Source: Bacillus subtilis subsp. subtilis str. 168 (GTDB lineage: Bacteria > Bacillota > Bacilli > Bacillales > Bacillaceae). Taken from it: a stretch of 32,000 bases of DNA. Shown here one piece after another: positions 2,529 to 27,439 of this stretch. The notes beneath the pieces were generated by a model. That model saw nothing but the letters and a program-made list of their open reading frames with translations. It was not told the DNA's origin and did not search any database. Location: assembly GCF_000009045.1 (NCBI RefSeq), contig NC_000964.3:2310001-2342000 (forward strand). Reading direction: 5' to 3'. Position numbers and translations under genes: made by a program. How positions within the stretch are numbered: the first letter of the stretch is position 1; each line of letters opens with the position of its first letter.

Positions 2529-5500
2529 TTACATTTTTATTGTATTGTCTGAATTTTTCCAGGAGATGCACGCCTGATACGCCATTTCAATCTCTTTCGC
2601 ATGTTCCCCTTCCGCATATCCTCTTAAATATGTCTCTTTTTGATCCGTTATTTGCGCGATTGCTTTTTCACCCATATCTTCCTGTAAGCGTCTGAGGTGA
2701 GCAGTGTAATGAGATATCAGGCTTTCTTCTTCATTTTTTATCCATGCCTCTGTGATTTTCGTAAGTTTCATCCGTACAGCTTCGATAAAGGTCGCTTTTC
2801 CTTTCTGCTCAAAAAACTGCTTCGGTGATTTGATCTCTTTTAGTTCCTGCTCAAAAGCACGTTCTTCTATTTCCGGTTCAACTTCCTTCAACTGTATGCC
2901 GTTCGAATGCTGATCACCCGCATAAACGGAAAAATAACCGTCCTCGTTTAATGTTTTTTGAAAATGATCCAGCCATTCTTCATTGATATGCCGTTCGATG
3001 AAACCGCTCATGCGAACATCAAGCGTTTTGATTTCCTGAATATATTCAAATAGATATTCATGTAAGGCTGTTGTCATCGCTTTACTGACGTTCTTTTTCC
3101 AATCCCCGTTTTGCAGCCCGGGATGAAATGCCGATTTTAATAAATCATTTGCAAAATATGATAATCGCTGTGCAATGTGATATAGCTGCTCTCTTGTATC
3201 TTTTTTTACTTTTTCAATGATGGTTTTTGAGTTCCGCCGTTTCTCGATATCGGCCGCTGTCCGCTCAAATGACAGCATAAGGCACTGTTTCTGCGCTTCC
3301 TTCTCTTCTCGGGACTGATGCTGGGATTGGTGAAGCTGAAAAACAGTTTCGCATAGTTTGTCTGCCTCCGAACTGAGCTGCGCTGCTGACGCTTTTTTTA
3401 CATCCACTTCGATAAACCGGTCTAAGTGTTTTCTTACTTTCGAGAACTGATTATAAAATGACTCCGGTTTTCCCACCAGTTCCTCCTTACTTGATACGGT
3501 AAAGAGCTGCGGCTCATAAACCCCTTCTTTTACAAGCTCTGCGCTGACATAATCGGTCACTGTTTCGAGCTCTGTTTTATCTTTTGCAAGGTCTGCAGCA
3601 TTAATAATAAAAAACATTTTATCCATGCTGAGCGATTCTTTCACAAGTCCAAGCTTTCGCAAAAATGAACGGTCTCCTTTTGAAAAAGAGTGCTGATAAT
3701 AAGTCATATAAAAAAATGCATCAGCATCTTTGATATATTGGAATGCCAGTTCTGTATGCCGTTTATTCATGCTGCTCGCGCCGGGTGTATCAACGATCGT
3801 AATCCCTTTTTCAGTGAGCGGGCATGTATAGTAGACCGTTACCTCTTTCACAGCACAGGCCGTTGTTTCCTCTGCTACATACGGCTTTAATTCAGAGAGC
3901 GGAATCGTTAATTTCTTCTGTTCCTGTATATACTGCTGATACTTCTCGTATGCAAGCAGGAAATTGCTGATCAATTTCACGTGTTCTTCCTGCAGCCTGT
4001 TTTTTTTGACTGCCTTTTCCCACTTCTCTGTGAAGGAACGGCCTGCCGGCTCCTTTGGTATTCCGGTGAGCTGCAAAATTTCAGCCGTTAAGTCATCCTC
4101 TGTCTTAAACACTACATTCGCTGTTTTGTTTAAGTTGCCATTGATTGGCTTTGTGATCTTGTTAATTGTCGCTGTGGTTGGCGTTGGTGAGGATGGCAGC
4201 ACTCTTTCGCCGACAAGCGCATTGGCAAATGATGATTTCCCCGAGCTAAAGCCTCCAAAAAGAGCGAGTGTAAATTTCCGTTCCTCAAGCCTTTTCACCC
4301 TTTCACGAAACGCTGAAGTTTGCTTTAACAACATGCTGCATTCGCCTAAAATGTCAGACAAAGTGTAAAAGCGTTTGATTTGGTCTTGAAGCGGCATTTC
4401 TTGTTCCATTTTGATTTCTGATTTCGGCATCGGCTGCGCCGTCAGCTGGCTTCGGCCTTGTTTCTGCTCTGGAGCCGCCACTCTTGTTTTCTTCGATTTA
4501 AACCATTCTGTGTCTATATGCATTGGGCATGCGGACTCTTCTTCCCAAATGGCCCACAGGCGATCGGTTTTCTCTCGGGCATTATTCTCTAAACGTGCCT
4601 GTTCTTGAAGAAAGACAAGTTTTTCTGATTCTTGGACGAGCCGGTCGTTAATTGTTTGCACATCTTTGGAAACACGCTCTTTCACCATAGCGGAGAGCAC
4701 CTTTATGATGTCTGCGGCTTCTCTTTTCGCCTCTTTCCGGATGAGCTCTGCCAAGTCTTTTGTATATTGCAATACATATTCAGAGGAAAAGGCTGCACCA
4801 TGCTTGACCGCGTGTTCAATGATGCTTATATCAAGCGGTGTGCGATAGGCCTGAATCAGCTTTTCACTTTCAGCGGTATAGACATCAAATACCTTGGCGA
4901 GTTTATGAAGCGTGTCTATCATATGCCAATCCGCTTCGGCCTCTGTTCGTTTTGCCACATCAGAGAAAAAAGCATTCCGCCTTTTATCTCTTTCCTGTGC
5001 AGTTTTCGCTTTAGAAAAGAAAAAGCCGGTTTTAAAGGAAGGCTCTTGTGATTCTAAAAATGCAGCCGCCAATTCACGCATTTCAAAAGGCGTCAGGTTG
5101 GCGTTTTTTAAAATACGATTGATTTCTTCCTGCATCCTCTTCTCTGCCTCAGTCATTTGTTTTTCGGCCTCATCCAATTGATCACGCAGCGATTGGACCA
5201 GTCCAGTATGGATATTAAGCTGTTCAGCGAAACTCGGAGCGCCTGTTTCGTCTTTCTTCAGCATTTCCGTATGTTCCTTTAGCAGATTACGGACTTTTTG
5301 TTCGGTTAAAGCCTGCATATTGCTTTTTGATTGCTGTTCTATTCTGCTTAACTCTTCTCTCAGGGCCCCCATCTGATTGAACGGGTGATCCGGTTCTGTT
5401 ACTGATGTAAAATAGAGCGCTTCCCTTGAAATCCCTTCATTGCAAAGCATCTCCTCTACCTGCGCTTGATAGTCTCCAAATTTCGTCTCCGTCTCATCAT

Positions 5501-6110
5501 GGCGGTCAATTTGATTGACGATAAAATACACATTCGGAATGCTTTCTTTTATTGATCTGAGAAACTTTACATTTTCCTCAGCGTGCACGTGATTATAGTG
5601 AACGACGTAAAACAGCGCATCCGCTTGGTGAAGAATAGAAGCAGCCGATAGAAAATGCGCATCATCTGTTGAATCTATCCCTGGAGTATCAATATACGCA
5701 ACCCCGGAATCGATCTCAGTATACCTGTCAAAAATTTCGACGCTTTCAATCTGTTCCCCGTCTTTACAATATTGCTGCACCTTGTCTTTCTGGTAAGTCC
5801 CTTCCAGCTCAGCACACGCTCCGTCTGTTGTATGAAGCCGAACTCGCTTTTCCCCGTTTCTGATCACAACAAGGTTAGCGCTTGTCGGAATCGGGCTTGT
5901 CGGCAAAATATTCTCCATTAACAGGCAGTTCAGCAGTGACGATTTCCCCGCTGAATAATGCCCGGTAAACGCGATATAAACCTCTTCATCAGCCGCTTTT
6001 TTCATGACCGCAGCCAGTTTAGCAGCCCTTTGTTCATCTTGATTCTCAATAAATTGCTTATAAAGTTCCCCGGTTTTATGCAAAAGCTCTTTTCTGTTTT
6101 GATCTGTCAT
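2529..6110 (-). CDS. dynA: Bacterial dynamin-like protein: two dynamin GTPase modules fused in one 1193-aa chain
   Basis: There are two P-loops: GHYSAGKS (nt 5940-5963, K56) and GGFSSGKS (nt 4233-4256, K625). Each is followed by DTPG (IDTPGIDS / VDTPGASS) and N-x-x-D (NQID / NAAD) motifs and long helical stalks. Formerly ypbR. Confidence 0.95.
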   Translation of the reverse strand: MTDQNRKELLHKTGELYKQFIENQDEQRAAKLAAVMKKAADEEVYIAFTGHYSAGKSSLLNCLLMENILPTSPIPTSANLVVIRNGEKRVRLHTTDGACAELEGTYQKDKVQQYCKDGEQIESVEIFDRYTEIDSGVAYIDTPGIDSTDDAHFLSAASILHQADALFYVVHYNHVHAEENVKFLRSIKESIPNVYFIVNQIDRHDETETKFGDYQAQVEEMLCNEGISREALYFTSVTEPDHPFNQMGALREELSRIEQQSKSNMQALTEQKVRNLLKEHTEMLKKDETGAPSFAEQLNIHTGLVQSLRDQLDEAEKQMTEAEKRMQEEINRILKNANLTPFEMRELAAAFLESQEPSFKTGFFFSKAKTAQERDKRRNAFFSDVAKRTEAEADWHMIDTLHKLAKVFDVYTAESEKLIQAYRTPLDISIIEHAVKHGAAFSSEYVLQYTKDLAELIRKEAKREAADIIKVLSAMVKERVSKDVQTINDRLVQESEKLVFLQEQARLENNAREKTDRLWAIWEEESACPMHIDTEWFKSKKTRVAAPEQKQGRSQLTAQPMPKSEIKMEQEMPLQDQIKRFYTLSDILGECSMLLKQTSAFRERVKRLEERKFTLALFGGFSSGKSSFANALVGERVLPSSPTPTTATINKITKPINGNLNKTANVVFKTEDDLTAEILQLTGIPKEPAGRSFTEKWEKAVKKNRLQEEHVKLISNFLLAYEKYQQYIQEQKKLTIPLSELKPYVAEETTACAVKEVTVYYTCPLTEKGITIVDTPGASSMNKRHTELAFQYIKDADAFFYMTYYQHSFSKGDRSFLRKLGLVKESLSMDKMFFIINAADLAKDKTELETVTDYVSAELVKEGVYEPQLFTVSSKEELVGKPESFYNQFSKVRKHLDRFIEVDVKKASAAQLSSEADKLCETVFQLHQSQHQSREEKEAQKQCLMLSFERTAADIEKRRNSKTIIEKVKKDTREQLYHIAQRLSYFANDLLKSAFHPGLQNGDWKKNVSKAMTTALHEYLFEYIQEIKTLDVRMSGFIERHINEEWLDHFQKTLNEDGYFSVYAGDQHSNGIQLKEVEPEIEERAFEQELKEIKSPKQFFEQKGKATFIEAVRMKLTKITEAWIKNEEESLISHYTAHLRRLQEDMGEKAIAQITDQKETYLRGYAEGEHAKEIEMAYQACISWKNSDNTIKM

Positions 6111-6219
6111 AAGTCTGAACCCCTTTGTGCCGTTTCAATTGTGAACCTTTTTCGAAAGATCTGAATTCATTCCCTTTTCATTTTACACAAGAATAAACCA
6201 AATTTCTTTAGGAGAATAG

Positions 6220-6247
6220 AAAAAAGCCGCCATTACGGCAGCTTCTA
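6220..6247 (-). terminator. Weak intrinsic terminator after the micro-ORF, upstream of dynA
   Basis: Minus strand: AGCTGCC-gtaat-GGCGGCT, a 7-bp stem that includes a G-U pair, followed by TTTTTTC. Confidence 0.5.
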
Positions 6248-6285
6248 TAAAAGAAAATCTGCAACTTTTACAAGTTCCAGATTCA

Positions 6286-6375
6286 TCAAACAGATTTATT
6301 AGAGATTCCTTTTAATACAAAACCAATTAATACACTATATGTACAAACCGCTCCAAGCAAAAACAGCATTGTCAT
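6286..6375 (-). CDS. 29-codon hydrophobic micro-ORF (predicted single TM helix), not in the ORF track
   Basis: ATG 6375 is preceded by the AGGATGGTGA RBS. Translation: MTMLFLLGAVCTYSVLIGFVLKGISNKSV, with stop TGA at 6286-6288. It has its own promoter upstream and a terminator downstream. Confidence 0.4.
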   Translation of the reverse strand: MTMLFLLGAVCTYSVLIGFVLKGISNKSV

Positions 6376-6392
6376 TTGCTTCACCATCCTGA

Positions 6393-6442
6393 TTGAGAAT
6401 CTTTTTCAAACCCATTTTAACATGGTTGAGAATGATTTTCAA
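6393..6442. promoter_or_regulatory. Two 17-bp palindromic operator-like boxes, 33 bp apart
   Basis: Plus strand: TTGAGAATcTTTTTCAA (6393-6409) and TTGAGAATgATTTTCAA (6426-6442). They are 15/17 identical. The second is an 8-1-8 palindrome with 7/8 symmetry. One covers the -35 and the other covers +1 and beyond. Confidence 0.45.
6414..6442 (-). promoter_or_regulatory. Sigma-A promoter with extended -10
   Basis: Minus strand: TTGAAA (6437-6442), a 17-nt spacer, then TGtTAAAAT (-10 at 6414-6419). It lies 4 nt after the bpsB stop. Confidence 0.55.
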
Positions 6443-6445
6443 TCG

Positions 6446-6952
6446 CTATTTTACGCTGTATTCCTGTAATGCTTTGTCTTCTGCGCGAATTCTGACGCTT
6501 AACAACACGGCATTGAAAATGGAAAACAGACACATGGTGACGTATGCTTGATAAAGCAGCGGAATCAGCAAAATTTCGAGGATAACAACGGCATAGTTTG
6601 GATGTTTCATCCATTTATATGGACCTTTTTTTACAAGCTCTACACCTGGAACAACAAGGATTTTCGTATTCCAATATGCTCCTAAGGAACAAAGCGCCCA
6701 ATACCGTACGATCTGTACGCTTAAAATCACTGCAGCGATACCGAGCCACCAGCTGGACGGCTGTTTATTCATCAGCAGCACCTCGGCAATTAAGGACAGG
6801 AAAAAAAGGATATGCATCGTAATGATATACGGATAGTGGCTCTCGCCAAATTCAATTGCTCCTTGCTTCTTTACCTTTTGTTCGTTTTGCCTGGCCACTG
6901 CCATTTCTGCTGCTCTTTGAACAATGAGAATGGCGATCAACAACCAAAACAT
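6446..6952 (-). CDS. bpsB: Isoprenylcysteine carboxyl methyltransferase-family membrane methyltransferase (alkylpyrone O-methyltransferase)
   Basis: 168 aa, multi-TM, with an ICMT-like C-terminal motif (GPYKWMKHPNY…E). Positioned immediately downstream of the type III PKS. Formerly ypbQ. Confidence 0.9.
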   Translation of the reverse strand: MFWLLIAILIVQRAAEMAVARQNEQKVKKQGAIEFGESHYPYIITMHILFFLSLIAEVLLMNKQPSSWWLGIAAVILSVQIVRYWALCSLGAYWNTKILVVPGVELVKKGPYKWMKHPNYAVVILEILLIPLLYQAYVTMCLFSIFNAVLLSVRIRAEDKALQEYSVK

Positions 6953-6955
6953 GAG

Positions 6956-8053
6956 TCAGGCCCCCTTTTCCCAGCTGAATAATAGCAACTCTGATGAGAA
7001 ACCCGGCCCTAATGCGCCAATCAGTCCTCGTTCAGCTTCCTTTTTATGTCCGTTCTGCAGATGGTCTTTGATCACATACAAGATTGTGGCTGAAGACATA
7101 TTTCCGTGCTTTTGCAAAATGCTTTGCGCAGATGAAAGCTTTTCTGACGACAGCCCGAGACTTTTGATGTATGCATCGATCACTTTTTTTCCGCCTGGAT
7201 GCGCCAAAAAAACACTGATATCATGGAATGACAGCTTATGTTTGTCCAAAAAAATCTGTACATTTGTTTTGAGCCATTTTTCCACCAAGGTCGGAATGTC
7301 TCGTGAGAAAATGACTTTGAATCCTTGATCGGTAAAGTCCCAGCCCATGACATCTTCTGATTGTTTCATCAAAACAGATTGGGCGTCCATTATCTTCGGC
7401 GCAAGCTTCAGCTTTGACACCCTGCGGTCCGCCTTCTCTCCGCATAATAAAGCTGCGGCAATGCCGTCACCAAAAAGCGAGGTGCCGATCAGATTGCTTT
7501 TTGTTTTATCTTCCGGCTGGAATGTCAGGCTGCACAGCTCGGCAGAAATGACAAGCACAAAAGCCTCAGGATACGCTTTGCAGTATTCGGCTGCACGCGC
7601 AAGTCCGCTGGCTCCTCCTGCACAGCCAAGCCCCCAAATCGGAATCCGCTTCGTATATGGAGAAAACGGAAGTTCATTCATAAGCCGCGCCTCGATACTC
7701 GGTGTGGAAAGACCTGTACTGGAGACGAAAAAAACAGCTTCCACTTTCTCATAAGGAATGGCTTCTTGAAAAAATTCCGGATGAGAGAGGCACTCACGAA
7801 CAGCCGCTCTGCTGTGTTTAAGTGTTTCTTCTATGTATATTTGATTTTTTTCTTCAAAGCTGTGCCCCTCTTTATACCATTCAATCGGCTTAACAAACTG
7901 TCTCGAATGGATTTGCCCGTTTTTAAAGGAGGATAACAGCCTGTCAATATCCTTAAAAGAATGCTGAAACATATAGCGGGCGAACTCGGCCGCTTTCTCT
8001 TGGTTTACATTATACGCAGGAAGACTTGTTCCAATGGATAAAATAAACGCCAT
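6956..8053 (-). CDS. bpsA: Type III polyketide synthase (chalcone synthase-like), 365 aa
   Basis: The start is re-called to ATG 8053 (MAFILSIGTS…), which has the strong RBS AAAGAGGTGATCGC. The catalytic Cys context is GLGCAGGASGL, and HPGG and GPGF motifs are present. Formerly bcsA. Confidence 0.9.
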   Translation of the reverse strand: MAFILSIGTSLPAYNVNQEKAAEFARYMFQHSFKDIDRLLSSFKNGQIHSRQFVKPIEWYKEGHSFEEKNQIYIEETLKHSRAAVRECLSHPEFFQEAIPYEKVEAVFFVSSTGLSTPSIEARLMNELPFSPYTKRIPIWGLGCAGGASGLARAAEYCKAYPEAFVLVISAELCSLTFQPEDKTKSNLIGTSLFGDGIAAALLCGEKADRRVSKLKLAPKIMDAQSVLMKQSEDVMGWDFTDQGFKVIFSRDIPTLVEKWLKTNVQIFLDKHKLSFHDISVFLAHPGGKKVIDAYIKSLGLSSEKLSSAQSILQKHGNMSSATILYVIKDHLQNGHKKEAERGLIGALGPGFSSELLLFSWEKGA

Positions 8054-8126: not shown

Positions 8127-10196
<2,070 letters not shown>

Positions 10197-10255
10197 TTCC
10201 TATTATATTGTAATAAATTATATCAAGATTCTAATCTCTTGCATAGGCTGAAAAT

Positions 10256-17487: not shown

Positions 17488-19413
17488 TTACATCATGTGC
17501 GGTTCAACAGGCAAGACCTTTTTGACCTCATCAATGATGCGTTCATTTTCTCCGCCAGCGTAAATGTGAATCGAGCCGCTGTCTTGATTCGAGCGAATCA
17601 GGCGCCCGATGCCCTGCCGTACACGTAACAACATATATGGCAGATCAACTTCTTCGAACGGATCTTTTTTCGCTCCGTTGCGCTTCGCTGTAAATACAGG
17701 ATCGTGTGGCGGGAACGGTAATGACCAAATGGTAACATTCTTCAATGCGTCACCGGGAATGTCGAGTCCTTCCCATAAGTGAACTGAACAAAGTACTGTT
17801 TCTTCTTCCTCTTGGAATTTCTCTACTAAGCTGCTGATTTCCTCATCACCTTCGAAGAAAATTGGATACGGCAGCTCCCATGCCGCCGACAGCTCTTTAA
17901 ACTCGTTTAATTCTTCAAAAGAAGGGAAAAGCACCAGCGTTCTTCCTTTGTATCGTTTGATTGTTTCAATCGTTTCAGCCGTTTTTTGTTCAGCGTCCAT
18001 ATCTGTTTTTGCGTATAGATTAATACTCATTTGCTCGTCATAATCATAAGGGGAATCAACAGTTAATGACAAATAATCATGAATCCCAAGACTGTCGGCA
18101 ATATAATCAAACGAACCGCCTTCTGACAGCGTAGCAGAAGAAAAGATATAAGGAATTTTCTTAGAAAACACTTTTTCGCCAAGTACTTCTGCTACCGTTC
18201 TCGGCATCACGACAAAGGTTGATTCTGCTTCCTTTTTCTCCAGCCAGCTGATCGCATCCTTTTGATATAGAGATAATGAATACGCCATTTGTTCAACATA
18301 TTCTTCCACTACTGACAGTTCGTATTGATCAATCGTATACATTTCAGACTCAAATACAAGTGCCTCACCGATTTTATCAAGTAAACGGCAAAGCTCGTCC
18401 GCCGCCTTTTTGACACGATGGTCATTTTTTATTTCTAAACGGTGTGAACCGGCTACTTCCTTTGATTCTTCAGAAAGAACATAGAAAAATTCGTCGTTTG
18501 CGAGAAGCGCATCTTCAATCAATTCTGCAAACTCTTCTCTGATGTCATTTTGCAGCAATCGTTCTAAAAACAATTCAAGAGTAGACTGCTTCACTCTATA
18601 GGTTAGCGCTTTTTGCGCAGCAAACTCTAACAAGTGCCCCTCATCAAATACAACTGCACTATGATCAGGCAAGAGCGGCAGCTGGCCCTCTCGTTTGCGT
18701 GATTCTTCCGTCCACACATGCTCCATATAAAAATCATGGGAACAAATGATTAAGTCCGTTGACTTGCGGTAGTAATCTCTGGAAAGTGTCAGACCGCATC
18801 TGTGTCTCATATCACAAGTCAGACAGTCCTGAAACGAGTCGTAGCTTACGTCAGACCACTCTTCATTCGATAGATTTGCGTACTGCTTACGGTCGCCATA
18901 CGGATAAAAGCGCTGCATCGCCTGGGACTCGTGGACAAATGACGGTAACGACTCATAAAGATCCAGCCATTTATCATCATCAGAACGCTGCATTGTTTTT
19001 TCAAGCTTCTTCAAGCATAAATATTGCTCATGTGATTTTGACAGCCTTGTATCAATTTTCAGATCAAGATGCTCAGCCAGCTTAGAAATATCGCCCTCTT
19101 TTTTCACCAGCTGTTCAATTAATGTTTCATCCGCACAAGCGATGATGGCAGGTTTGCCGACATACCTTGCATAGCTGATTGCAAAAAGAAGATATACCAG
19201 CGTTTTCCCCGTTCCCACTCCAGCTTCGGCGAACATGACTTTTTTCTCTTTAAACGCCCGCTCCAGCTGAAAAGCCATAAATACTTGCTCGTCCCGAAGA
19301 TCAAACCCTTTTTCGGGAAGGATATCGTAAAACACGTCACCAATCCAATTGTTCAATTCTTCATAAAAATTCTTTGTTTTCGTTAAAGAAAAAGGCAAAC
19401 GTGATGTTGTCAC
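17488..19413 (-). CDS. ypvA: DinG/XPD-family SF2 helicase with a 4-Cys Fe-S insertion, 641 aa
   Basis: Walker A AGVGTGKT, DEGH box (VFDEGHLL), Cys cluster YLC…DCLTCDMRHRCG, and a C-terminal motif VI-like RVRQGIGRLIR. GTG start at 19413. Confidence 0.85.
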   Translation of the reverse strand: MTTSRLPFSLTKTKNFYEELNNWIGDVFYDILPEKGFDLRDEQVFMAFQLERAFKEKKVMFAEAGVGTGKTLVYLLFAISYARYVGKPAIIACADETLIEQLVKKEGDISKLAEHLDLKIDTRLSKSHEQYLCLKKLEKTMQRSDDDKWLDLYESLPSFVHESQAMQRFYPYGDRKQYANLSNEEWSDVSYDSFQDCLTCDMRHRCGLTLSRDYYRKSTDLIICSHDFYMEHVWTEESRKREGQLPLLPDHSAVVFDEGHLLEFAAQKALTYRVKQSTLELFLERLLQNDIREEFAELIEDALLANDEFFYVLSEESKEVAGSHRLEIKNDHRVKKAADELCRLLDKIGEALVFESEMYTIDQYELSVVEEYVEQMAYSLSLYQKDAISWLEKKEAESTFVVMPRTVAEVLGEKVFSKKIPYIFSSATLSEGGSFDYIADSLGIHDYLSLTVDSPYDYDEQMSINLYAKTDMDAEQKTAETIETIKRYKGRTLVLFPSFEELNEFKELSAAWELPYPIFFEGDEEISSLVEKFQEEEETVLCSVHLWEGLDIPGDALKNVTIWSLPFPPHDPVFTAKRNGAKKDPFEEVDLPYMLLRVRQGIGRLIRSNQDSGSIHIYAGGENERIIDEVKKVLPVEPHMM

Positions 19414-21319: not shown

Positions 21320-21720
21320 AAGTGGTCTAACGTTCTGTAAGCCATGTTTTGTTCCATCGTACTGCAAACGGCTCATCACCTCGTACTCAGGCGGCAATCA
21401 TCTATCTACAGAAAGCATTCTGTCCTTCTCTCCGTTGAATTCCGTTAAGAAGGTTCCCCTACCAAAATTTGGGTTTCTCGCTCGAGGGGTTTACCGCGTT
21501 CCACTCTCACCATTTCTAGTGAGACTTCGTCACTGTGGCACTTTCAAGGATACTCAGCCATATCCGAAGACGTAGGCTTTTTTCCTGCCGTCAGCCTCTA
21601 AAGACTGCCCTAGCTTATGACTTCGCTAGGCACGAACACTACGGGCATCTCAGCACCGTGCGAGCATGGACTTTCCTCTACAGATTCAAGATCTGCAGCG
21701 ATTACCCGAACGTTAAGAAC
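21320..21720 (-). ncRNA. rnpB: RNase P RNA (type B), 401 nt
   Basis: The minus strand begins GTTCTTAACGTTCGGGTAATCGCTGCAGATCTTGAATCTGTAGAGGAAAGTCCATGCTCGCACGGTGCTGAGATGCCCGTAGTG… and ends …ACAGAACGTTAGACCACTT. It contains the universally conserved GAGGAAAGTCC element, and I recognise it as B. subtilis RNase P RNA. Confidence 0.95.
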
Positions 21721-23094: not shown

Positions 23095-23190
23095 TTAAAA
23101 GTGTGCAATTAAGCTGTCTTTAAAGTTTGAAAACACAAAAGCAATCAAAAATACCACAACAAAGAACAAGTAAAAAACACCCTTATACAT
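23095..23190 (-). CDS. 31-codon strongly hydrophobic micro-ORF, not in the ORF track
   Basis: ATG 23190 is preceded by the strong RBS AAAGGGAGAGTTGGT. Translation: MYKGVFYLFFVVVFLIAFVFSNFKDSLIAHF, with stop TAA at 23095-23097. Confidence 0.45.
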   Translation of the reverse strand: MYKGVFYLFFVVVFLIAFVFSNFKDSLIAHF

Positions 23191-23323: not shown

Positions 23324-24565
23324 TTAAGAGGAATATTTCCTCTTTAGCCGGGCAATTCTCACATGCAGTTTTTCAGTTTCTTTCTCTGATAAGCATGCCG
23401 CATCGCTAAGCGATTGCTCTGCTACTTGCAATGCTTTTCCGAATTCTTTTTTCTTATGCTCAAAATATTTCGCGAGCTCTATTACAGCAGCGTATCTGCA
23501 CTTCTGGTTTTGCGAGCGGGACAGCTTTTCCCAAAGCGGCACTGCTTCTTCCAAGCGGTTTTGTTTTTTGTACAGGAGCGATAAATCCAGCCGTGCACTG
23601 TCCTGGTCCTCAAACGATTTTTCTATAAGCCTTTCCAACTGCTTGATCGCTTGGTCCGTTTCTTTATGAGCCATAAACCATTTCGCCATAGCATAGGCTT
23701 CACTGTGTTCTTTTGGCGCATGTGATTCTGAAAGGATTTTTTTAGACATATGGATGTACAATGAAATGAGTGATAACACATCCATTTCATTATGATGCAG
23801 GACACCTTTTAAAAGATCCGGCTCTTGCGCCTTGATAAAATGAAAGTAAAGCATTGGCGCCAAGTAGCCCGGTGTGTCTTCTAGCCTGCGGATGCCGAGC
23901 TCCTCTTTTTCAACCGTGCCAAGAGATACACGGTCCATTTTGTGTTTCCACAGGCGTCTAGCTCCATGCAAAAGATCAAAGTGGCCAAACTCCGGAAGCT
24001 TCGGAAGTCTGTCACGGATCAAGGTGTGCCTTGTTTTCACCTGCGGCCAATCAAAGGCTTTGCCGTTGTAGGTCACAAGTGATGTAATGTCAACCTCGCT
24101 TAAAAAGCTTTGGTACAAGGCGACTTCGTTCCCCGGTTTGGGCAAAAGATGCTGTTTGACTGTCACTCGGTCTTCATATACTCTCGCATGCCCAAGCAAA
24201 AAAATGGTATTCCCAGCTCCACCCCCAAGACCGGTTGTTTCTGTATCAAAGAAAAAGAGGTTGTTTTTGTTATACCCTTTTGCTGACAATGTATGCGACA
24301 GGCCGCTTTGATTCCACAGTGTGATCACTTCCTCAAGCTCAGAAAAGCTGTATAACCCATGGCGGTGAGAAAGCGGATATTCTACTTCTCTGATGAGGCA
24401 ATATTCATCTTCGAAGATGAAAGGCTTCATGCCAAAAGCCTCCCACTCTTCTAAAAACGGGATGTCATCAAAGTGGTTTTCTTGTTTGCCTGCTTCTATT
24501 TTTTGTTCTCCTTCGTCGAGCGCCATGTGCTTTTTCATCCGTTGGAGTTTCCCTTTTAATGACAT
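23324..24565 (-). CDS. yprB: DEDDh (RNase T/DnaQ-like, YprB-type RNase H fold) 3'-5' exonuclease fused to C-terminal TPR repeats
   Basis: Exo motifs FFFDTETTGL, YNGKAFDWP and HHNEMDVLS, with a TPR-like helical C-terminal half. RBS TAAGGAGGGAGG overlaps the yprA stop codon. Also named mrfB. Confidence 0.9.
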   Translation of the reverse strand: MSLKGKLQRMKKHMALDEGEQKIEAGKQENHFDDIPFLEEWEAFGMKPFIFEDEYCLIREVEYPLSHRHGLYSFSELEEVITLWNQSGLSHTLSAKGYNKNNLFFFDTETTGLGGGAGNTIFLLGHARVYEDRVTVKQHLLPKPGNEVALYQSFLSEVDITSLVTYNGKAFDWPQVKTRHTLIRDRLPKLPEFGHFDLLHGARRLWKHKMDRVSLGTVEKEELGIRRLEDTPGYLAPMLYFHFIKAQEPDLLKGVLHHNEMDVLSLISLYIHMSKKILSESHAPKEHSEAYAMAKWFMAHKETDQAIKQLERLIEKSFEDQDSARLDLSLLYKKQNRLEEAVPLWEKLSRSQNQKCRYAAVIELAKYFEHKKKEFGKALQVAEQSLSDAACLSEKETEKLHVRIARLKRKYSS

Positions 24566-24580
24566 ATCCGGCCTCCCTCC

Positions 24581-26830
24581 TTACGACATTTGATCCAACA
24601 GCTGCAAAATTCTTTCCTTTGCTTTTATCCCTTCTATTTCCGTACCTATACAAGACGGACAGCCGTCATGACAAGGACAATGTGTAATCAGTTGTTTCGC
24701 CGCTTCATTAATGTCTGAAAAACGTTTAAAGACTTCCTCCGCCAAACCGATACCGCCCGGATAATGATCATATAAAAATATGGTTGGCAATCCGGTATGG
24801 GCTGCTTTAATTTGAGAAACAACATGAACATCATTTCGATCACACATGATATACACAGGGACAATATGCTGCAGCACATTCGAGATGCCAAGAAGCAGCT
24901 GTTCCAGTGTCTTTTCCCCGATGTCTTCATCCGCTGTTTTGATTTCGAGCCAAGCTGCACTTGTATGCAGTTCTTCTTCCGGCAAATGAATAGGTCCAGA
25001 CCCAATATTTTCAAAAGTGGTCATTTTTATTTTTTTAAAAATGGTCGGCAGGGCATTGACAGTGACGTCTCCGTAGTGCAATGACGTACGGCTTTTTTCT
25101 TTCGTTTTATCGATTTCTAATACCTTCAGCTGAACTGCCAGGTTTGCATCCGTATAATATTCGACATCGACTTTTCTGACATACGCCTTTTTATGGTCCC
25201 AATCGAGCTTCTCAACTTGATACTGAACGCCTTCATGCAAATAAATCGCTTCATCATGCAAAAGCGTCATCGCACTAAAACGGTCCATTTCACCGATAAT
25301 CCTTACATTTGCAATATCCGACTGATCAACTATAACGACATTTTCCTGGGAGGCGGAACGCAAACTGATGTTTGACGCAGGGAACGACTCACTTGCCCAA
25401 TGGTACCGTTCGCCGTTGCGGTGAAGAACAGCCTCTTCCTGAAGATACTCAAGAATATCACTGACTTCCATGGCTCCAAATTCTTCATCAGCTCTAAAAG
25501 GAAGCTCATAAGCCGCACACTTTAAGTGGTCTACTAAAATAATCAAATTCTCCGGATTGATTCTTGCAGATTCCGGCGAACGATTAAAGAAATATTCAGG
25601 ATGCCGCACAATATATTGGTCAATCGGTGTTGAATTGGCTACCATGATAATCAAAGATTCACCGTGTCTTCTGCCGGCTCGTCCCGCCTGCTGCCAAGCA
25701 CTTGCAACACTTCCGGGATACCCCGTCATTACACACACTTGCAGCTGGCCGATATCAACACCAAGCTCTAAGGCATTCGTACTGACCACTCCTAAAATGT
25801 CGCCTTCTCTCAGTCCTCTTTCGATTTCTCTTCGCTCTTTCGGCAGATAGCCTCCCCGATAGCCTCTGATTGATTTTGTTCCAATCTCTTTTTTCACAAG
25901 CTCCTGAATATGGCTTAAAATAATTTCCACCCGAACTCTGCTTCTGGCAAAAACAATGGTCTGCACTTTGTTTTTAAGGAACTCTTTCGCCAGTTCATTC
26001 ACTTCTGCGGTTGCGCTCCTTCTAATATTCAGCGGTTTGTTCACAATTGGCGGATTGTAAAACACAAAATGCTTGCGTCCGCTCGGTGCGCCGTTGTCAT
26101 CGACCAGCCGCATCGGTTTGCCTGTCAGCTGCTCTCCCAATTCCTTTGGGTTGGCAATCGTTGCGGAAGTACAAATAAAAACTGGATCACTTCCATAAAA
26201 CCGGCAGATCCGCTTCAGCCGCCGGATCACATTTGCCACATGGCTGCCGAACACACCTCGATACGTATGAAGCTCATCGATGACGATATACTTAAGGTTT
26301 TCAAACAAACTGACCCATTTCGTATGATGCGGTAGAATGGCAGAATGCAGCATATCGGGGTTTGTAATGACAATATGACCTGCTTTTCTCACCTTTTGTC
26401 TGATTGCCGGAGACGTATCCCCGTCATATGTAAAGCTTTTAATATCAATGCCCATTTCATCAATAATTTCATTTAGCTCGCTCTTTTGGTCTTGTGCCAG
26501 CGCTTTAGTCGGAAATAAATATAACGCCCGGTTTGTTTCATCTTGGGCGATGGACTGCAGGACTGGGAGGTTGTAGCATAACGTTTTTCCTGATGCTGTT
26601 GGCGTTACGGTAACGATGCTCTCTCCTTTTTGCACATATTGAAAAGCGGAATATTGGTGAGTATATAGTTCATCAATGCCCCTTTTCGAAAGGGCCGCTT
26701 TGATTCTCTCGTCTATACTTTCGGGCATAGGCCTTGTTTTTGCTTCCCGAGGCTCAATTTCATGCCAATTCACAACGTTTTCATTTCCTTTTAAATCAGA
26801 AATGAGTTCAGTCAGTGATTTCTTTTTCAT
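24581..26830 (-). CDS. yprA: SF2 DEAD/DEAH-box helicase with a C-terminal DUF1998 (4-Cys zinc) domain, 749 aa
   Basis: Motif I TPTASGKT, motif II DELH, motif III SAT, motif VI QQAGRAGRR. C-terminal CPCHDGCPSC at nt 24650-24679. RBS AAGAGGTG. Also named mrfA. Confidence 0.95.
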   Translation of the reverse strand: MKKKSLTELISDLKGNENVVNWHEIEPREAKTRPMPESIDERIKAALSKRGIDELYTHQYSAFQYVQKGESIVTVTPTASGKTLCYNLPVLQSIAQDETNRALYLFPTKALAQDQKSELNEIIDEMGIDIKSFTYDGDTSPAIRQKVRKAGHIVITNPDMLHSAILPHHTKWVSLFENLKYIVIDELHTYRGVFGSHVANVIRRLKRICRFYGSDPVFICTSATIANPKELGEQLTGKPMRLVDDNGAPSGRKHFVFYNPPIVNKPLNIRRSATAEVNELAKEFLKNKVQTIVFARSRVRVEIILSHIQELVKKEIGTKSIRGYRGGYLPKERREIERGLREGDILGVVSTNALELGVDIGQLQVCVMTGYPGSVASAWQQAGRAGRRHGESLIIMVANSTPIDQYIVRHPEYFFNRSPESARINPENLIILVDHLKCAAYELPFRADEEFGAMEVSDILEYLQEEAVLHRNGERYHWASESFPASNISLRSASQENVVIVDQSDIANVRIIGEMDRFSAMTLLHDEAIYLHEGVQYQVEKLDWDHKKAYVRKVDVEYYTDANLAVQLKVLEIDKTKEKSRTSLHYGDVTVNALPTIFKKIKMTTFENIGSGPIHLPEEELHTSAAWLEIKTADEDIGEKTLEQLLLGISNVLQHIVPVYIMCDRNDVHVVSQIKAAHTGLPTIFLYDHYPGGIGLAEEVFKRFSDINEAAKQLITHCPCHDGCPSCIGTEIEGIKAKERILQLLDQMS

Positions 26831-26906
26831 TCTTTACACCTCTTTGTCAAGTACAGTTTACCGAATATTTGTTTGCATGGCTAGGTGCAAATTTTATACA
26901 GTTGAA

Positions 26907-26933
26907 TAAAAAAAGCAAGGCATACGCCCTGCT
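26907..26933 (-). terminator. Terminator after ypqE
   Basis: Minus strand: AGCAGGGC-gtat-GCCTTGCT (one G-U pair) followed by TTTTTTT. The stem begins inside the stop codon. Confidence 0.75.
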
Positions 26934-27439
26934 TATTTCGCTTTTATTGTAAAGAGCTTTGATTCGCCTTTACGAGCAGCCTTTTCGCCTGCCGATACCA
27001 TTGATCCTACAGCCTCACCATTCATTATAACGATTGGGATGACTGTGCTGCTCGCTTTTTCTTTTATTAATTCCAAATCACATGTAATCAGCGGGTCACC
27101 GACCTTCACTTTATCCCCTTCTTTAATGTGGGCAGTAAATCCTTCTCCGTTCATATTGACTGTCTCCAGCCCGACATGAATTAACAGCTCAATTCCCGAG
27201 CGAGTCCGAATGCCAACGGCGTGTTTGGTGTGGAAAATCTGAATGACTTCACCTTCAGCGGGAGAAACGATTTCACCGCTAGAAGGTTCCACCGCTATTC
27301 CTTCTCCCATCATTTTCTGTGAAAAAACAGGGTCCGGTACATCTGACAGGTCCATTACTGTACCGTCTGCCGGAGAATAAATAACCTCTTCTGTCACCTT
27401 TTCCTGAATTTTGCCCATTCCGAATAATTTTTTCAGCAA
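26933..27439 (-). CDS. ypqE: Stand-alone PTS EIIA (glucose-family) domain protein
   Basis: EIIA-Glc signature: …[18 protein letters not shown]…FHTKHAVGI…[16 protein letters not shown]…. I prefer the TTG start at 27439, behind AAGGGAG with 8-nt spacing (168 aa). The track ORF starts at GTG 27490. Confidence 0.75.

Follow-up and report, generated by a model that had tools for sequence, protein, structure and literature searches.

Does the helicase–exonuclease gene pair in the 32,000-nt stretch of the Bacillus subtilis 168 chromosome analysed here (the window) serve DNA repair, or does it belong to the anti-phage systems with which helicases of its type have been associated? YprA-type helicases form the core of DISARM, Dpd, Druantia, ARMADA and related systems (10.1101/2025.09.15.676423), a tie to which the preliminary description of this DNA had rightly pointed, alongside its proposal that the pair has a 'sense-and-degrade' layout and might act on foreign DNA. 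The pair comprises two ORFs, both on the minus strand:

24581 to 26830, minus strand: mrfA (yprA), encoding a 749-aa SF2 3'→5' DNA helicase (ORF, Pfam, PDB identity)
23324 to 24565, minus strand: mrfB (yprB), encoding a 413-aa Mg2+-dependent 3'→5' DEDDh DNA exonuclease with a TPR tail (PF13482, 8UN9)

The ORF coordinates and lengths, as well as the 15-nt gap, had been given exactly in that description, which left the strand unstated. The 749-aa product is 100% identical over all 749 aa to PDB 6ZNP, 6ZNQ and 6ZNS, residues 33–279 of the second product are 100% identical to PDB 8UN9 ('Exonuclease MrfB'), and an exact-sequence look-up returned YPRA_BACSU (MrfA) and YPRB_BACSU (MrfB), again both at 100% identity. 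Since both products are identical to B. subtilis YprA/MrfA and YprB/MrfB, the pair is the published MrfAB repair system, and its initial identification as yprA–yprB/mrfAB was correct. We hold with high confidence that the mrfA–mrfB operon is a two-protein excision-repair module against mitomycin C (MMC) damage; no evidence contradicts the MrfAB identity, and the observed sequence features of the pair lie far beyond chance expectation. In protein sequence, in gene order, at the 15-nt junction and in its chromosomal neighbours the pair agrees fully with the published B. subtilis system, with no protein-level difference found. This is a well-studied, already known repair system, neither new nor defence-type, and the additions made here are comparative: the fixed synteny, the conserved N-terminal helix of MrfB and a Cheo-like box in the promoter.

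The helicase has the following layout:

MrfA domains: RecA1 (DEAD), aa 57–230; RecA2 (Helicase_C), aa 282–388; winged helix, aa 424–493; OB-CON-MZB canopy
24647 to 24883, minus strand: MZB (MrfA Zn-binding, formerly DUF1998), aa 650–728 (PF09369, 3.9e-22)

Its translation carries TPTASGKT, DELH, SAT and QQAGRAGRR, corresponding to SF2 motifs I, II, III and VI, and CPCHDGCPSC, verified base by base at nt 24650–24679, contains the Zn ligands C718, C720, C724 and C727; all of these had been named beforehand and are present in the translation and at that position. The Pfam matches to DEAD (2e-36), Helicase_C (5e-17), WHD_HRQ1 (PF22982; 8e-13, 50 bits against a cut-off of 27) and MZB (4e-22, 79 bits against 24) all exceed their gathering cut-offs, so that the helicase and DUF1998 assignments, together with the RNase H-like assignment of MrfB (RNase_H_2), are backed by profile matches. 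MrfA works as a monomer and, like other parts of its description as an SF2 helicase, its 3'→5' movement along DNA is established; its Zn site has been seen in the crystal structure (PMC7797055); the Zn-ligand cysteines are needed in vivo (10.1101/426304). The idea of the four-Cys module as a sensor was put forward by Burby & Simmons (10.1101/426304) and recurred in the preliminary description as a zinc-finger 'sensor'. In the structures the Zn module instead has a mechanical role within the helicase: as a 'drum' or hinge, the MZB makes the OB/CON canopy roll over the loading strand while MrfA translocates; it has hardly any contact with DNA and lacks specificity for MMC lesions (PMC7797055).

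Three parts can be distinguished in the exonuclease:

23729 to 24469, minus strand: MrfB exonuclease core, aa 33–279, with D107, E109, D172, H258 and D262
24527 to 24565, minus strand: conserved basic N-terminal helix of MrfB, aa 1–13, MSLKGKLQRMKKH, proposed tether to the MrfA winged helix
23330 to 23707, minus strand: MrfB TPR tail, aa 287–412, three helix-turn-helix repeats and a capping helix (AlphaFold2, Foldseek)

The core matches RNase_H_2 (PF13482) at 1e-39 and superimposes on 8UN9 with a Foldseek TM of 0.92. The Exo motifs claimed earlier, DTETTG, YNGKAFDWP and HHNEMD, are all present in the translation, and the five DEDDh residues are invariant in an alignment of 20 homologues. The enzyme depends on Mg2+/Mn2+, degrades with 3'→5' polarity and was crystallised in an inactive form with the Asp172 helix unwound (PMC11194089). 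At the N-terminus, M1, K6, L7, R9 and K11 are invariant in the 20 homologues; AlphaFold2 models aa 3–14 as a helix, followed by a variable linker (aa 14–30) with pLDDT <50. In two-hybrid experiments the MrfB N-terminus was required for MrfA binding (10.1101/426304), and an AlphaFold-Multimer docking of MrfB onto MrfA has been published (PMC11194089); these are the two bases on which the MrfA–MrfB interface is proposed. The part required for helicase binding is thus the N-terminus and not the TPR tail. That the tail is of the TPR type is itself borne out by structure: the AlphaFold2 model (mean pLDDT 83.6) folds residues 287–412 into seven helices (pLDDT about 80–96), and its Foldseek matches are dominated by TPR proteins, including the idealised three-repeat protein CTPR3 (1NA0; TM 0.77, rmsd 3.0 Å), 2XEV (TM 0.77) and 6V8E, although every match of MrfB to the Pfam TPR models falls under its gathering cut-off. 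The tail also holds a conserved ELAKYxEH motif (aa 363–370).

With other DEDDh exonucleases of the DnaQ superfamily (ExoX, ExoI, TREX1/2 and the Pol ε exonuclease) MrfB shares the two-metal DEDDh site, the leucine wedge (L113 in MrfB) and the 3'→5' polarity (PMC11194089). It differs from them in its N-terminal helicase-tethering helix, the three-repeat C-terminal TPR tail, a domain at residues 34–100 ahead of the Pfam RNase_H_2 region, and in crystallising in the inactive state with the Asp172 helix unwound.

The expression signals of the pair are as follows:

26913 to 26934, minus strand: terminator-like hairpin and T-run at the end of ypqE (pattern scan; 9-bp stem, 5 GC pairs)
26855 to 26883, minus strand: putative sigma-A promoter of mrfAB (TAGCCA at 26878–26883, 17-nt spacer, TAAACT at 26855–26860)
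26862 to 26875, minus strand: palindrome resembling a Cheo box, CAAACAAATATTCG, within the promoter spacer and 1 nt upstream of the −10
26837 to 26845, minus strand: mrfA ribosome-binding site, AAAGAGGTG, 6 nt 5' of the ATG
24566 to 24580, minus strand: mrfA/mrfB junction, 15 nt, GGAGGGAGGCCGGAT, with two overlapping GGAGG cores

The gene upstream of mrfA, ypqE, encodes a product matching PF00358 (PTS EIIA), and since the terminator-like hairpin separates it from mrfA, mrfAB should carry a promoter of its own. The position of the putative −10 aligns with a conserved TAnAAT across 74 orthologous loci, and species from B. subtilis to B. pumilus retain the promoter block CCTAGCCATGCAAACAAATATTCGGTAAACT. 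At the junction, the two GGAGG cores begin right after the TAA stop codon of mrfA; the earlier statement that the ribosome-binding site overlaps the stop therefore applies to the stop-codon A's that extend the Shine-Dalgarno sequence (AAGGAGG) and not to the cores themselves. This layout, with its 15-nt gap, suggests that mrfB is translationally coupled to mrfA.

A recA-type putative LexA (Cheo) box adjoins the mrfA −10 in most Bacillaceae but has a degenerate form in the B. subtilis clade. The Cheo box, the LexA operator, has the core GAAC-N4-GTTC and the consensus CGAACATATGTTCG (PMC8270828). Taken alone, the window site CAAACAAATATTCG, with two core mismatches, does not rise above chance, and LexA control of mrfAB in the B. 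subtilis clade, including the window, is uncertain. Across the orthologous loci, CGAAC-N4-ATTCG, with one core mismatch, abuts the −10 in 53 of 78 and occurs nowhere else in 1.02 Mb, and recA promoters bear the same half-sites. The box at Bacillaceae mrfA promoters may be a new observation; judged from these comparative sequence patterns, it is a putative recA-type operator, so that the operon is probably damage-inducible in most of the family.

What, then, does the pair repair? MrfAB is specific to MMC and independent of UvrABC, in agreement with the background given in the preliminary description; its pathway is additive to the UvrABC route and not part of it (10.1101/426304), and MMC sensitivity is equal in single and double mrf mutants (10.1101/426304; PMC7797055; PMC11194089). 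Interstrand crosslinking is the effect for which MMC is best known, and once a crosslink has been unhooked its processing by a helicase and an exonuclease is imaginable, but it is extremely improbable that MrfAB repairs such crosslinks: in a denaturation/snap-cool assay they persist in ΔuvrABC cells, and ΔmrfAB, alone or in the uvrABC background, leaves them unaffected (10.1101/426304). Unhooking thus needs UvrABC and not MrfAB (10.1101/426304), which speaks against interstrand adducts, one of the two options for the natural substrates raised earlier; that MrfAB is dispensable for this step suggests that its targets are mono-adducts or intrastrand crosslinks.

A wider reading takes MrfAB to be a 3'-end-processing repair module for which MMC is only a laboratory proxy, its natural substrates being other bulky lesions of the same class (e.g., soil natural-product adducts) or stalled replication and recombination intermediates. 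In vitro, MrfA is not specific for MMC-damaged DNA (PMC7797055), the yeast homologue Hrq1 handles several lesion types (10.1101/426304; PMC7797055), and the MrfB family comprises 1,309 50%-identity clusters at E ≤ 1e-30, many more than contact with mitomycin producers could plausibly cover; the putative recA-type LexA box in most Bacillaceae would also fit a general damage-response role. Yet ΔmrfA is insensitive to UV, 4-NQO, psoralen, MMS and phleomycin even without uvrAB, and the pair was found by Tn-seq under MMC only (10.1101/426304); few further agents have been tried in the literature, with a passing mention in a pyrrolobenzodiazepine (PBD) study. We regard this wider role as possible but rather unlikely. 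Homologues from distant species fail to complement B. subtilis mrf mutants (10.1101/426304), and 'MMC repair' may therefore be a clade-specific function.

For the MMC-repair module, we infer the following mechanism. Transcription of mrfAB would start beyond the ypqE terminator at a promoter that belongs to the operon itself, with translation of mrfB coupled to that of mrfA, and the conserved N-terminal helix would tether MrfB to the winged-helix domain of MrfA. The 3' end unwound by MrfA could then be fed into MrfB, which would remove the adduct-bearing strand. Neither MrfA nor MrfB has been found to recognise lesions or to make incisions (PMC7797055); recognition and the initial nick would come from a separate factor, for which the TPR tail of MrfB is the best candidate docking site.

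The genomic setting bears directly on the question of defence. MrfA lies directly upstream of MrfB on the same strand in all 79 testable Bacillaceae loci (MrfB identity 44–98%), with a gap of −32 to +36 nt in 77 of them, and the adjacency extends to Brevibacillus (Paenibacillaceae), so that the pairing holds beyond close relatives; MrfA–MrfB pairs and fusions are known from five phyla (10.1101/2025.09.15.676423; 10.1101/426304). The conserved order is yppE–yppG–(ypqE)–mrfA–mrfB–cotD–ypsA–gpsB–ypsC–ypvA, the neighbours in the window being ypqE (PTS EIIA), cotD, ypsA, gpsB and rnpB. Housekeeping and sporulation genes surround the pair in 79 of 79 testable loci, and PADLOC gave generic similarity alone for these neighbours (ypvA to DinG, ypsC to a methyltransferase).

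Could MrfAB nonetheless be, or double as, an anti-phage 'sense-and-degrade' system in which the Zn module or TPR tail senses and MrfB degrades? The central place of YprA-type helicases in DISARM, Dpd, Druantia and ARMADA (10.1101/2025.09.15.676423) would favour this, as would the matches of the PADLOC models SngC, BrxH, DruE and DrmA to the MrfA helicase core and the preference of MrfB for linear DNA ends (10.1101/426304), and our literature search turned up no phage-plaquing test of ΔmrfAB. However, the PADLOC and NCBIfam matches are confined to the generic RecA core, and the YprA phylogeny sets MrfAB in the repair branch, apart from every defence clade (10.1101/2025.09.15.676423). Its neighbours lack defence models, its synteny is constant in about 80 Bacillaceae genomes whereas defence islands have variable context, and there is no methylase or other partner for self/non-self discrimination. 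Full-length MrfA and MrfB are missing from the 50,697 phage records searched, and the full-length MrfB matches on 'plasmids' are restricted to chromosome-like records. The repair-branch placement, the fixed housekeeping context and the lack of full-length phage copies speak against the 'sense-and-degrade' proposal, which we consider scarcely credible. It is likewise very unlikely that MrfAB, besides MMC repair, keeps an immune-type activity by which it degrades invading phage or plasmid DNA with the TPR tail recruiting a sensing or incision partner; nothing here supports such an activity on linear or ssDNA-tailed invading DNA.

The comparison with individual systems follows the same lines. The DrmA/DrmB proteins of DISARM combine a YprA-family SF2 core with an OB-CON-DUF1998 (MZB) canopy, as in MrfA (10.1101/2025.09.15.676423), but carry the helicase and the DUF1998 module on separate genes, whereas MrfA fuses them in one 749-aa ORF; moreover, DISARM deploys a PLD nuclease (DrmC) and a methyltransferase in defence islands, in contrast to the DEDDh exonuclease, lack of methylase and core-genome location of MrfAB. 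Membership in DISARM was rejected given the fused ORF, the sub-threshold NCBIfam DISARM_DrmAL score (25 bits against a cut-off of 999), the lack of an adjacent PLD nuclease or methyltransferase, and the fixed synteny. The Druantia DruE, ARMADA and BRIGADE helicases have the core fold of RecA1/2, winged helix, OB, CON and Zn module in common with MrfA, and PDB 9TU7, a 2,108-aa helicase that is probably DruE, is a distant sequence match. Yet these proteins, of about 1,500–2,000 aa, bear BrxA-like and extra Zn-binding inserts that MrfA lacks, are paired with DruH or other partners and have a proven anti-phage phenotype; of the main branches of the YprA tree, MrfA falls in the other one (10.1101/2025.09.15.676423). 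Membership in this group was likewise rejected: MrfA has 749 aa, the PADLOC DruE models align to RecA-core segments only, and there are no partner genes.

The TIGR03817 model (DECH_helic, an SftH-type hypothetical equivalog) matches MrfA over almost its full length at 685 bits, which lies under the cut-off of 874; MrfA is therefore not that equivalog but a member of a related subfamily. Like MrfA, Mycobacterium smegmatis SftH and yeast Hrq1 are monomeric 3'→5' DNA helicases with a C-terminal four-Cys DUF1998, though without a dedicated adjacent DEDDh–TPR exonuclease of the MrfB type, and Hrq1 also lowers MMC sensitivity (10.1101/2025.09.15.676423; 10.1101/426304; PMC7797055).

The pair under study consists of two ORFs that a six-frame ORF list places at exactly the coordinates and 15-nt spacing first read from the sequence:

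24581..26830, minus strand: mrfA (yprA), 749 aa
23324..24565, minus strand: mrfB (yprB), 413 aa

The product of the first matches PDB 6ZNP, 6ZNQ and 6ZNS ('Uncharacterized ATP-dependent helicase YprA') without a difference along all 749 residues, residues 33–279 of the second are identical to 8UN9 ('Exonuclease MrfB'), and a look-up of the exact sequences gives YPRA_BACSU/MrfA and YPRB_BACSU/MrfB, each in at least 1,000 contigs. The preliminary description was right both in naming the pair yprA-yprB/mrfAB and in the background knowledge it attached to it. The feature is already known, with solved structures for both proteins and published genetics, and is not a new system. All the motifs quoted for the two proteins are present in the translations of both ORFs, and the CPCHDGCPSC module (24650–24679), checked base by base, supplies C718, C720, C724 and C727. 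Likewise, Pfam profiles recover DEAD, Helicase_C, WHD_HRQ1 and MZB (the MrfA Zn-binding domain, formerly DUF1998) in MrfA, each above its gathering cut-off, and RNase_H_2 in MrfB (1e-39). The minus-strand sequence of the helicase ORF closes with ...CAAATGTCGTAA; GGAGGGAGGCCGGAT (24580–24566) and the ATG of mrfB come next. This gap holds two overlapping GGAGG cores; the claimed overlap of the mrfB ribosome-binding site with the helicase stop codon is marginal, as the Shine-Dalgarno sequence gains only the A's of the TAA.

The published work shows that MrfA, a 3'→5' helicase, and MrfB, an exonuclease of the same polarity, interact and belong to a single genetic pathway for mitomycin C (MMC) damage. 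The yprAB mutants are sensitive to MMC only, with no sensitivity to UV, 4-NQO, psoralen, MMS or phleomycin, and losing either gene or both confers the same degree of sensitivity (Burby & Simmons, 10.1101/426304). The pathway is synergistic with UvrABC, and therefore independent of and parallel to it; further, it makes no contribution to interstrand-crosslink unhooking, which points to mono-adducts or intrastrand crosslinks as the likely targets (10.1101/426304). The same crosslink assay contradicts the initial suggestion of interstrand adducts as the substrate. Structures of MrfA have been solved for the free protein, a DNA complex and a complex with DNA and AMPPNP (Roske et al., PMC7797055); in them the MZB domain binds Zn and works as a drum rolling the OB/CON canopy, with hardly any contact to the loading strand. 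The helicase was not seen to be specific for DNA damaged by MMC, and a separate recruiting factor was proposed (PMC7797055). The 'zinc-finger sensor' put forward from the sequence echoes a published speculation that these later structures do not support. MrfB, in turn, is a Mg2+-dependent 3'→5' DNA exonuclease whose core was solved in an inactive state, and an AlphaFold-Multimer model docks its N-terminal helix on the winged-helix domain of MrfA (Manthei et al., PMC11194089). Two-hybrid contact between the proteins needs the MrfB N-terminus and not its TPR C-terminus (10.1101/426304).

We built an AlphaFold2 model of MrfB on an alignment of 20 homologues (mean pLDDT 83.6). It comprises, in order, an N-terminal helix (residues 3–14, with M1, K6, L7, R9 and K11 invariant in this segment), a disordered linker, the exonuclease core and seven helices (287–412). 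All Pfam TPR matches in MrfB fall below the cut-off; however, a Foldseek search with the model returns 8UN9 first and TPR proteins next, so the TPR tail is real despite these sub-threshold scores, as had been read from the sequence. The tail carries a conserved ELAKYxEH motif (aa 363–370). That its partner is not evident, as also noted at the outset, still stands, its role being described as unknown by Manthei et al. (PMC11194089). An exhaustive HMMER search with MrfB yielded 1,309 clusters at 50% identity (E ≤ 1e-30), and most of the top 150 cluster representatives align through the tail, indicating that the exonuclease-TPR architecture is widespread. No MrfA–MrfB fusions occur among these 150 (roughly 100–610 aa); hence, the published fusions must be more distant ones.

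The pairing of the two genes extends beyond close relatives, which answers the co-occurrence check set out with the initial reading. A profile scan of a genome collection with the alignment of 20 MrfB homologues was used to collect the best 80 loci, which span many Bacillaceae genera at 44–98% MrfB identity. In tblastn searches of these with the window's proteins, MrfA lies directly upstream of mrfB on the same strand in every locus with enough upstream DNA (79/79), and the distance from the mrfA stop to the mrfB start is −32 to +36 nt in 77 of the 79. The pair also co-occurs, as adjacent genes, in Brevibacillus laterosporus (Paenibacillaceae), where the flanking synteny is absent. The gene order yppE–yppG–(ypqE)–mrfA–mrfB–cotD–ypsA–gpsB–ypsC–ypvA is largely kept across the loci. 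In the window, which is B. subtilis chromosome, the neighbours are ypsC (RlmL-like methyltransferase), the RNase P RNA, gpsB (DivIVA family), ypsA and cotD, together with ypqE (PTS EIIA), yppG, a DUF1798 protein and a DUF2515 protein. The shared adjacency and conserved flanking order therefore indicate a vertically inherited core locus rather than a defence island.

This bears on the proposal that foreign DNA might be the natural substrate, which neither phylogeny nor genomic context nor mobility supports. Within the YprA family, a repair branch of YprA-only and MrfAB systems is distinguished from a defence branch of DISARM, Dpd, Druantia, ARMADA, BRIGADE and TALON (Bell et al., 10.1101/2025.09.15.676423). 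Matches of MrfA to the PADLOC and NCBIfam defence models are confined to the generic helicase core; for the DrmA model of DISARM it scores 25 bits, far short of the cut-off of 999. PADLOC searches of the ten neighbouring proteins gave no defence-system match beyond generic DinG and methyltransferase similarity, and a defence island was rejected on this basis. A mobile element was likewise rejected: in the phage collection there is no full-length MrfA or MrfB, with only partial RecA-core or exonuclease-core matches, and the plasmid-collection matches (a 21.7-kb Geobacillus record with spore genes, a 1.38-Mb Brevibacillus replicon and a 2.6-Mb Acetoanaerobium replicon) are all chromosome-like. 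Full-length MrfB matches labelled as plasmid-borne lie on such replicons only, and the Acetoanaerobium match, a generic exonuclease, lacks a neighbouring MrfA. The remaining questions of the TPR partner, the lesion-recognition factor and LexA control belong to the published MrfAB system and are no sign of a new one.

Some further features of this locus and its counterparts deserve mention. A second putative repair helicase lies in the conserved neighbourhood:

17488–19413, minus strand: ypvA, 641-aa DinG/Rad3-family helicase (Helicase_C_2), ~4 kb from mrfAB

It is syntenic with mrfAB in most Bacillaceae loci, and its best PADLOC match is the type IV CRISPR-associated DinG model. In two of the compared loci, both Metabacillus-type (one from Metabacillus, the other from a metagenome-assembled genome of unclassified Bacillota), mrfA and mrfB are separated by an insert (L014, 5599–5934, 336 nt; L027, 5755–5922, 168 nt). 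These have no Rfam match; their common sequence (…AATCCCCACNCAANTATGGTG…CGAACNGAGCAAGCT…) suggests a small repeat or mobile element. Finally, the 21.7-kb 'plasmid' of Geobacillus stearothermophilus 10 (CP008935.1, L081, region 4289–7161) holds spore and division genes of chromosomal type, ordered mrfB–cotD–gpsB–ypsC–ypvA, with a transposase in place of mrfA and a MrfB match that begins only at residue 34. The record may reflect natural loss of mrfA or else an artefact of assembly, the latter being considered because ypsC and ypvA appear frameshifted.

Comparison of the promoter regions points to a putative regulatory link with the SOS response. The relevant features in the window are:

26913–26934: putative ypqE terminator, upstream of the mrfAB promoter
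26883–26855: putative mrfAB promoter, TAGCCA–17 nt–TAAACT, downstream of that terminator
26862–26875, minus strand: mrfA box, CAAACAAATATTCG, with two core mismatches

When the 150 nt upstream of mrfA are aligned across 78 loci, a palindrome emerges with the consensus CGAACgtttATTCG, ending 1 nt before a TAnAAT −10 hexamer and lying ~42–56 nt upstream of mrfA (in L006, L009–L079 and others). The LexA operator of Bacillota, the Cheo box, is GAAC-N4-GTTC, with the consensus CGAACATATGTTCG (PMC8270828, PMC4234289, PMC2248561); hence, the mrfA box has one core mismatch. The exact form CGAAC-N4-ATTCG occupies this position in 53 of the 78 Bacillaceae loci and is absent elsewhere on either strand in 1.02 Mb of loci, against ~1.5 occurrences expected by chance. 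In 80 recA loci from metagenomes, taken as a positive control, the promoters carry CGAAT-N4-GTTCG or CGAAC-N4-ATTCG boxes (e.g., CGAACAAATATTCG in L093, L096 and L100, and CGAATAAATGTTCG in L084), sharing both half-sites with the mrfA box. The latter takes the form CGAACGTTTATTCG, for example, in Neobacillus, Metabacillus or Priestia, and AGAAC-N4-ATTCG in Peribacillus; the degenerate form of the window is conserved within the B. subtilis/B. pumilus clade, and no box was found in Brevibacillus.

The case for this box is purely comparative: in the window by itself, Cheo-like matches are not significant (2 versus 3.3 expected), and our literature search, to which the primary LexA-regulon studies were external, returned no link of yprA or mrfAB to LexA or SOS. 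From the promoter alignments we judge SOS control of mrfAB in most Bacillaceae to be just on the probable side, with LexA control in B. subtilis itself uncertain or weakened. If true, MrfAB would be a member of the SOS regulon in most Bacillaceae, and the degenerate box would explain why the model organism never flagged mrfAB as an SOS gene. This is a modest hypothesis, mainly for DNA-repair specialists, that bears on the damage-inducibility of the pair.

Taken with the published biochemistry, these features suggest a most likely scheme. The pair would be transcribed from its own promoter downstream of the ypqE terminator, with mrfB translation coupled to that of mrfA via the 15-nt junction. 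The N-terminal helix of MrfB would tether it to the MrfA winged-helix domain, such that the unwound 3' end could pass into the exonuclease and the adduct-bearing strand be removed. Lesion recognition and the nick would be supplied by a separate factor, for which the TPR tail, with its ELAKYxEH motif, is the obvious candidate docking surface.

At the other end of the pair, a downstream fold was rejected as a terminator after mrfB, being no better than shuffled sequence (z = 0.85), and no convincing terminator was found before the next small ORF:

23095–23190, minus strand: 31-aa hydrophobic ORF MYKGVFYLFFVVVFLIAFVFSNFKDSLIAHF, with its own RBS AAAGGGAGAG, 133 nt downstream of mrfB

With no clear end to the transcription unit, this ORF may be co-transcribed with mrfAB. 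It is annotated only as 'hypothetical protein' and is conserved in position in many Bacillaceae genera. An Rfam gathering scan of the whole window detected no structured RNA in or beside mrfAB, and the window has no tRNAs; the scan recovered only two elements, both expected features of B. subtilis:

21333–21713, minus strand: RNase P RNA, class B, 353 bits, between gpsB and ypsC
10114–10213, minus strand: purine riboswitch, upstream of xpt–pbuX-like genes
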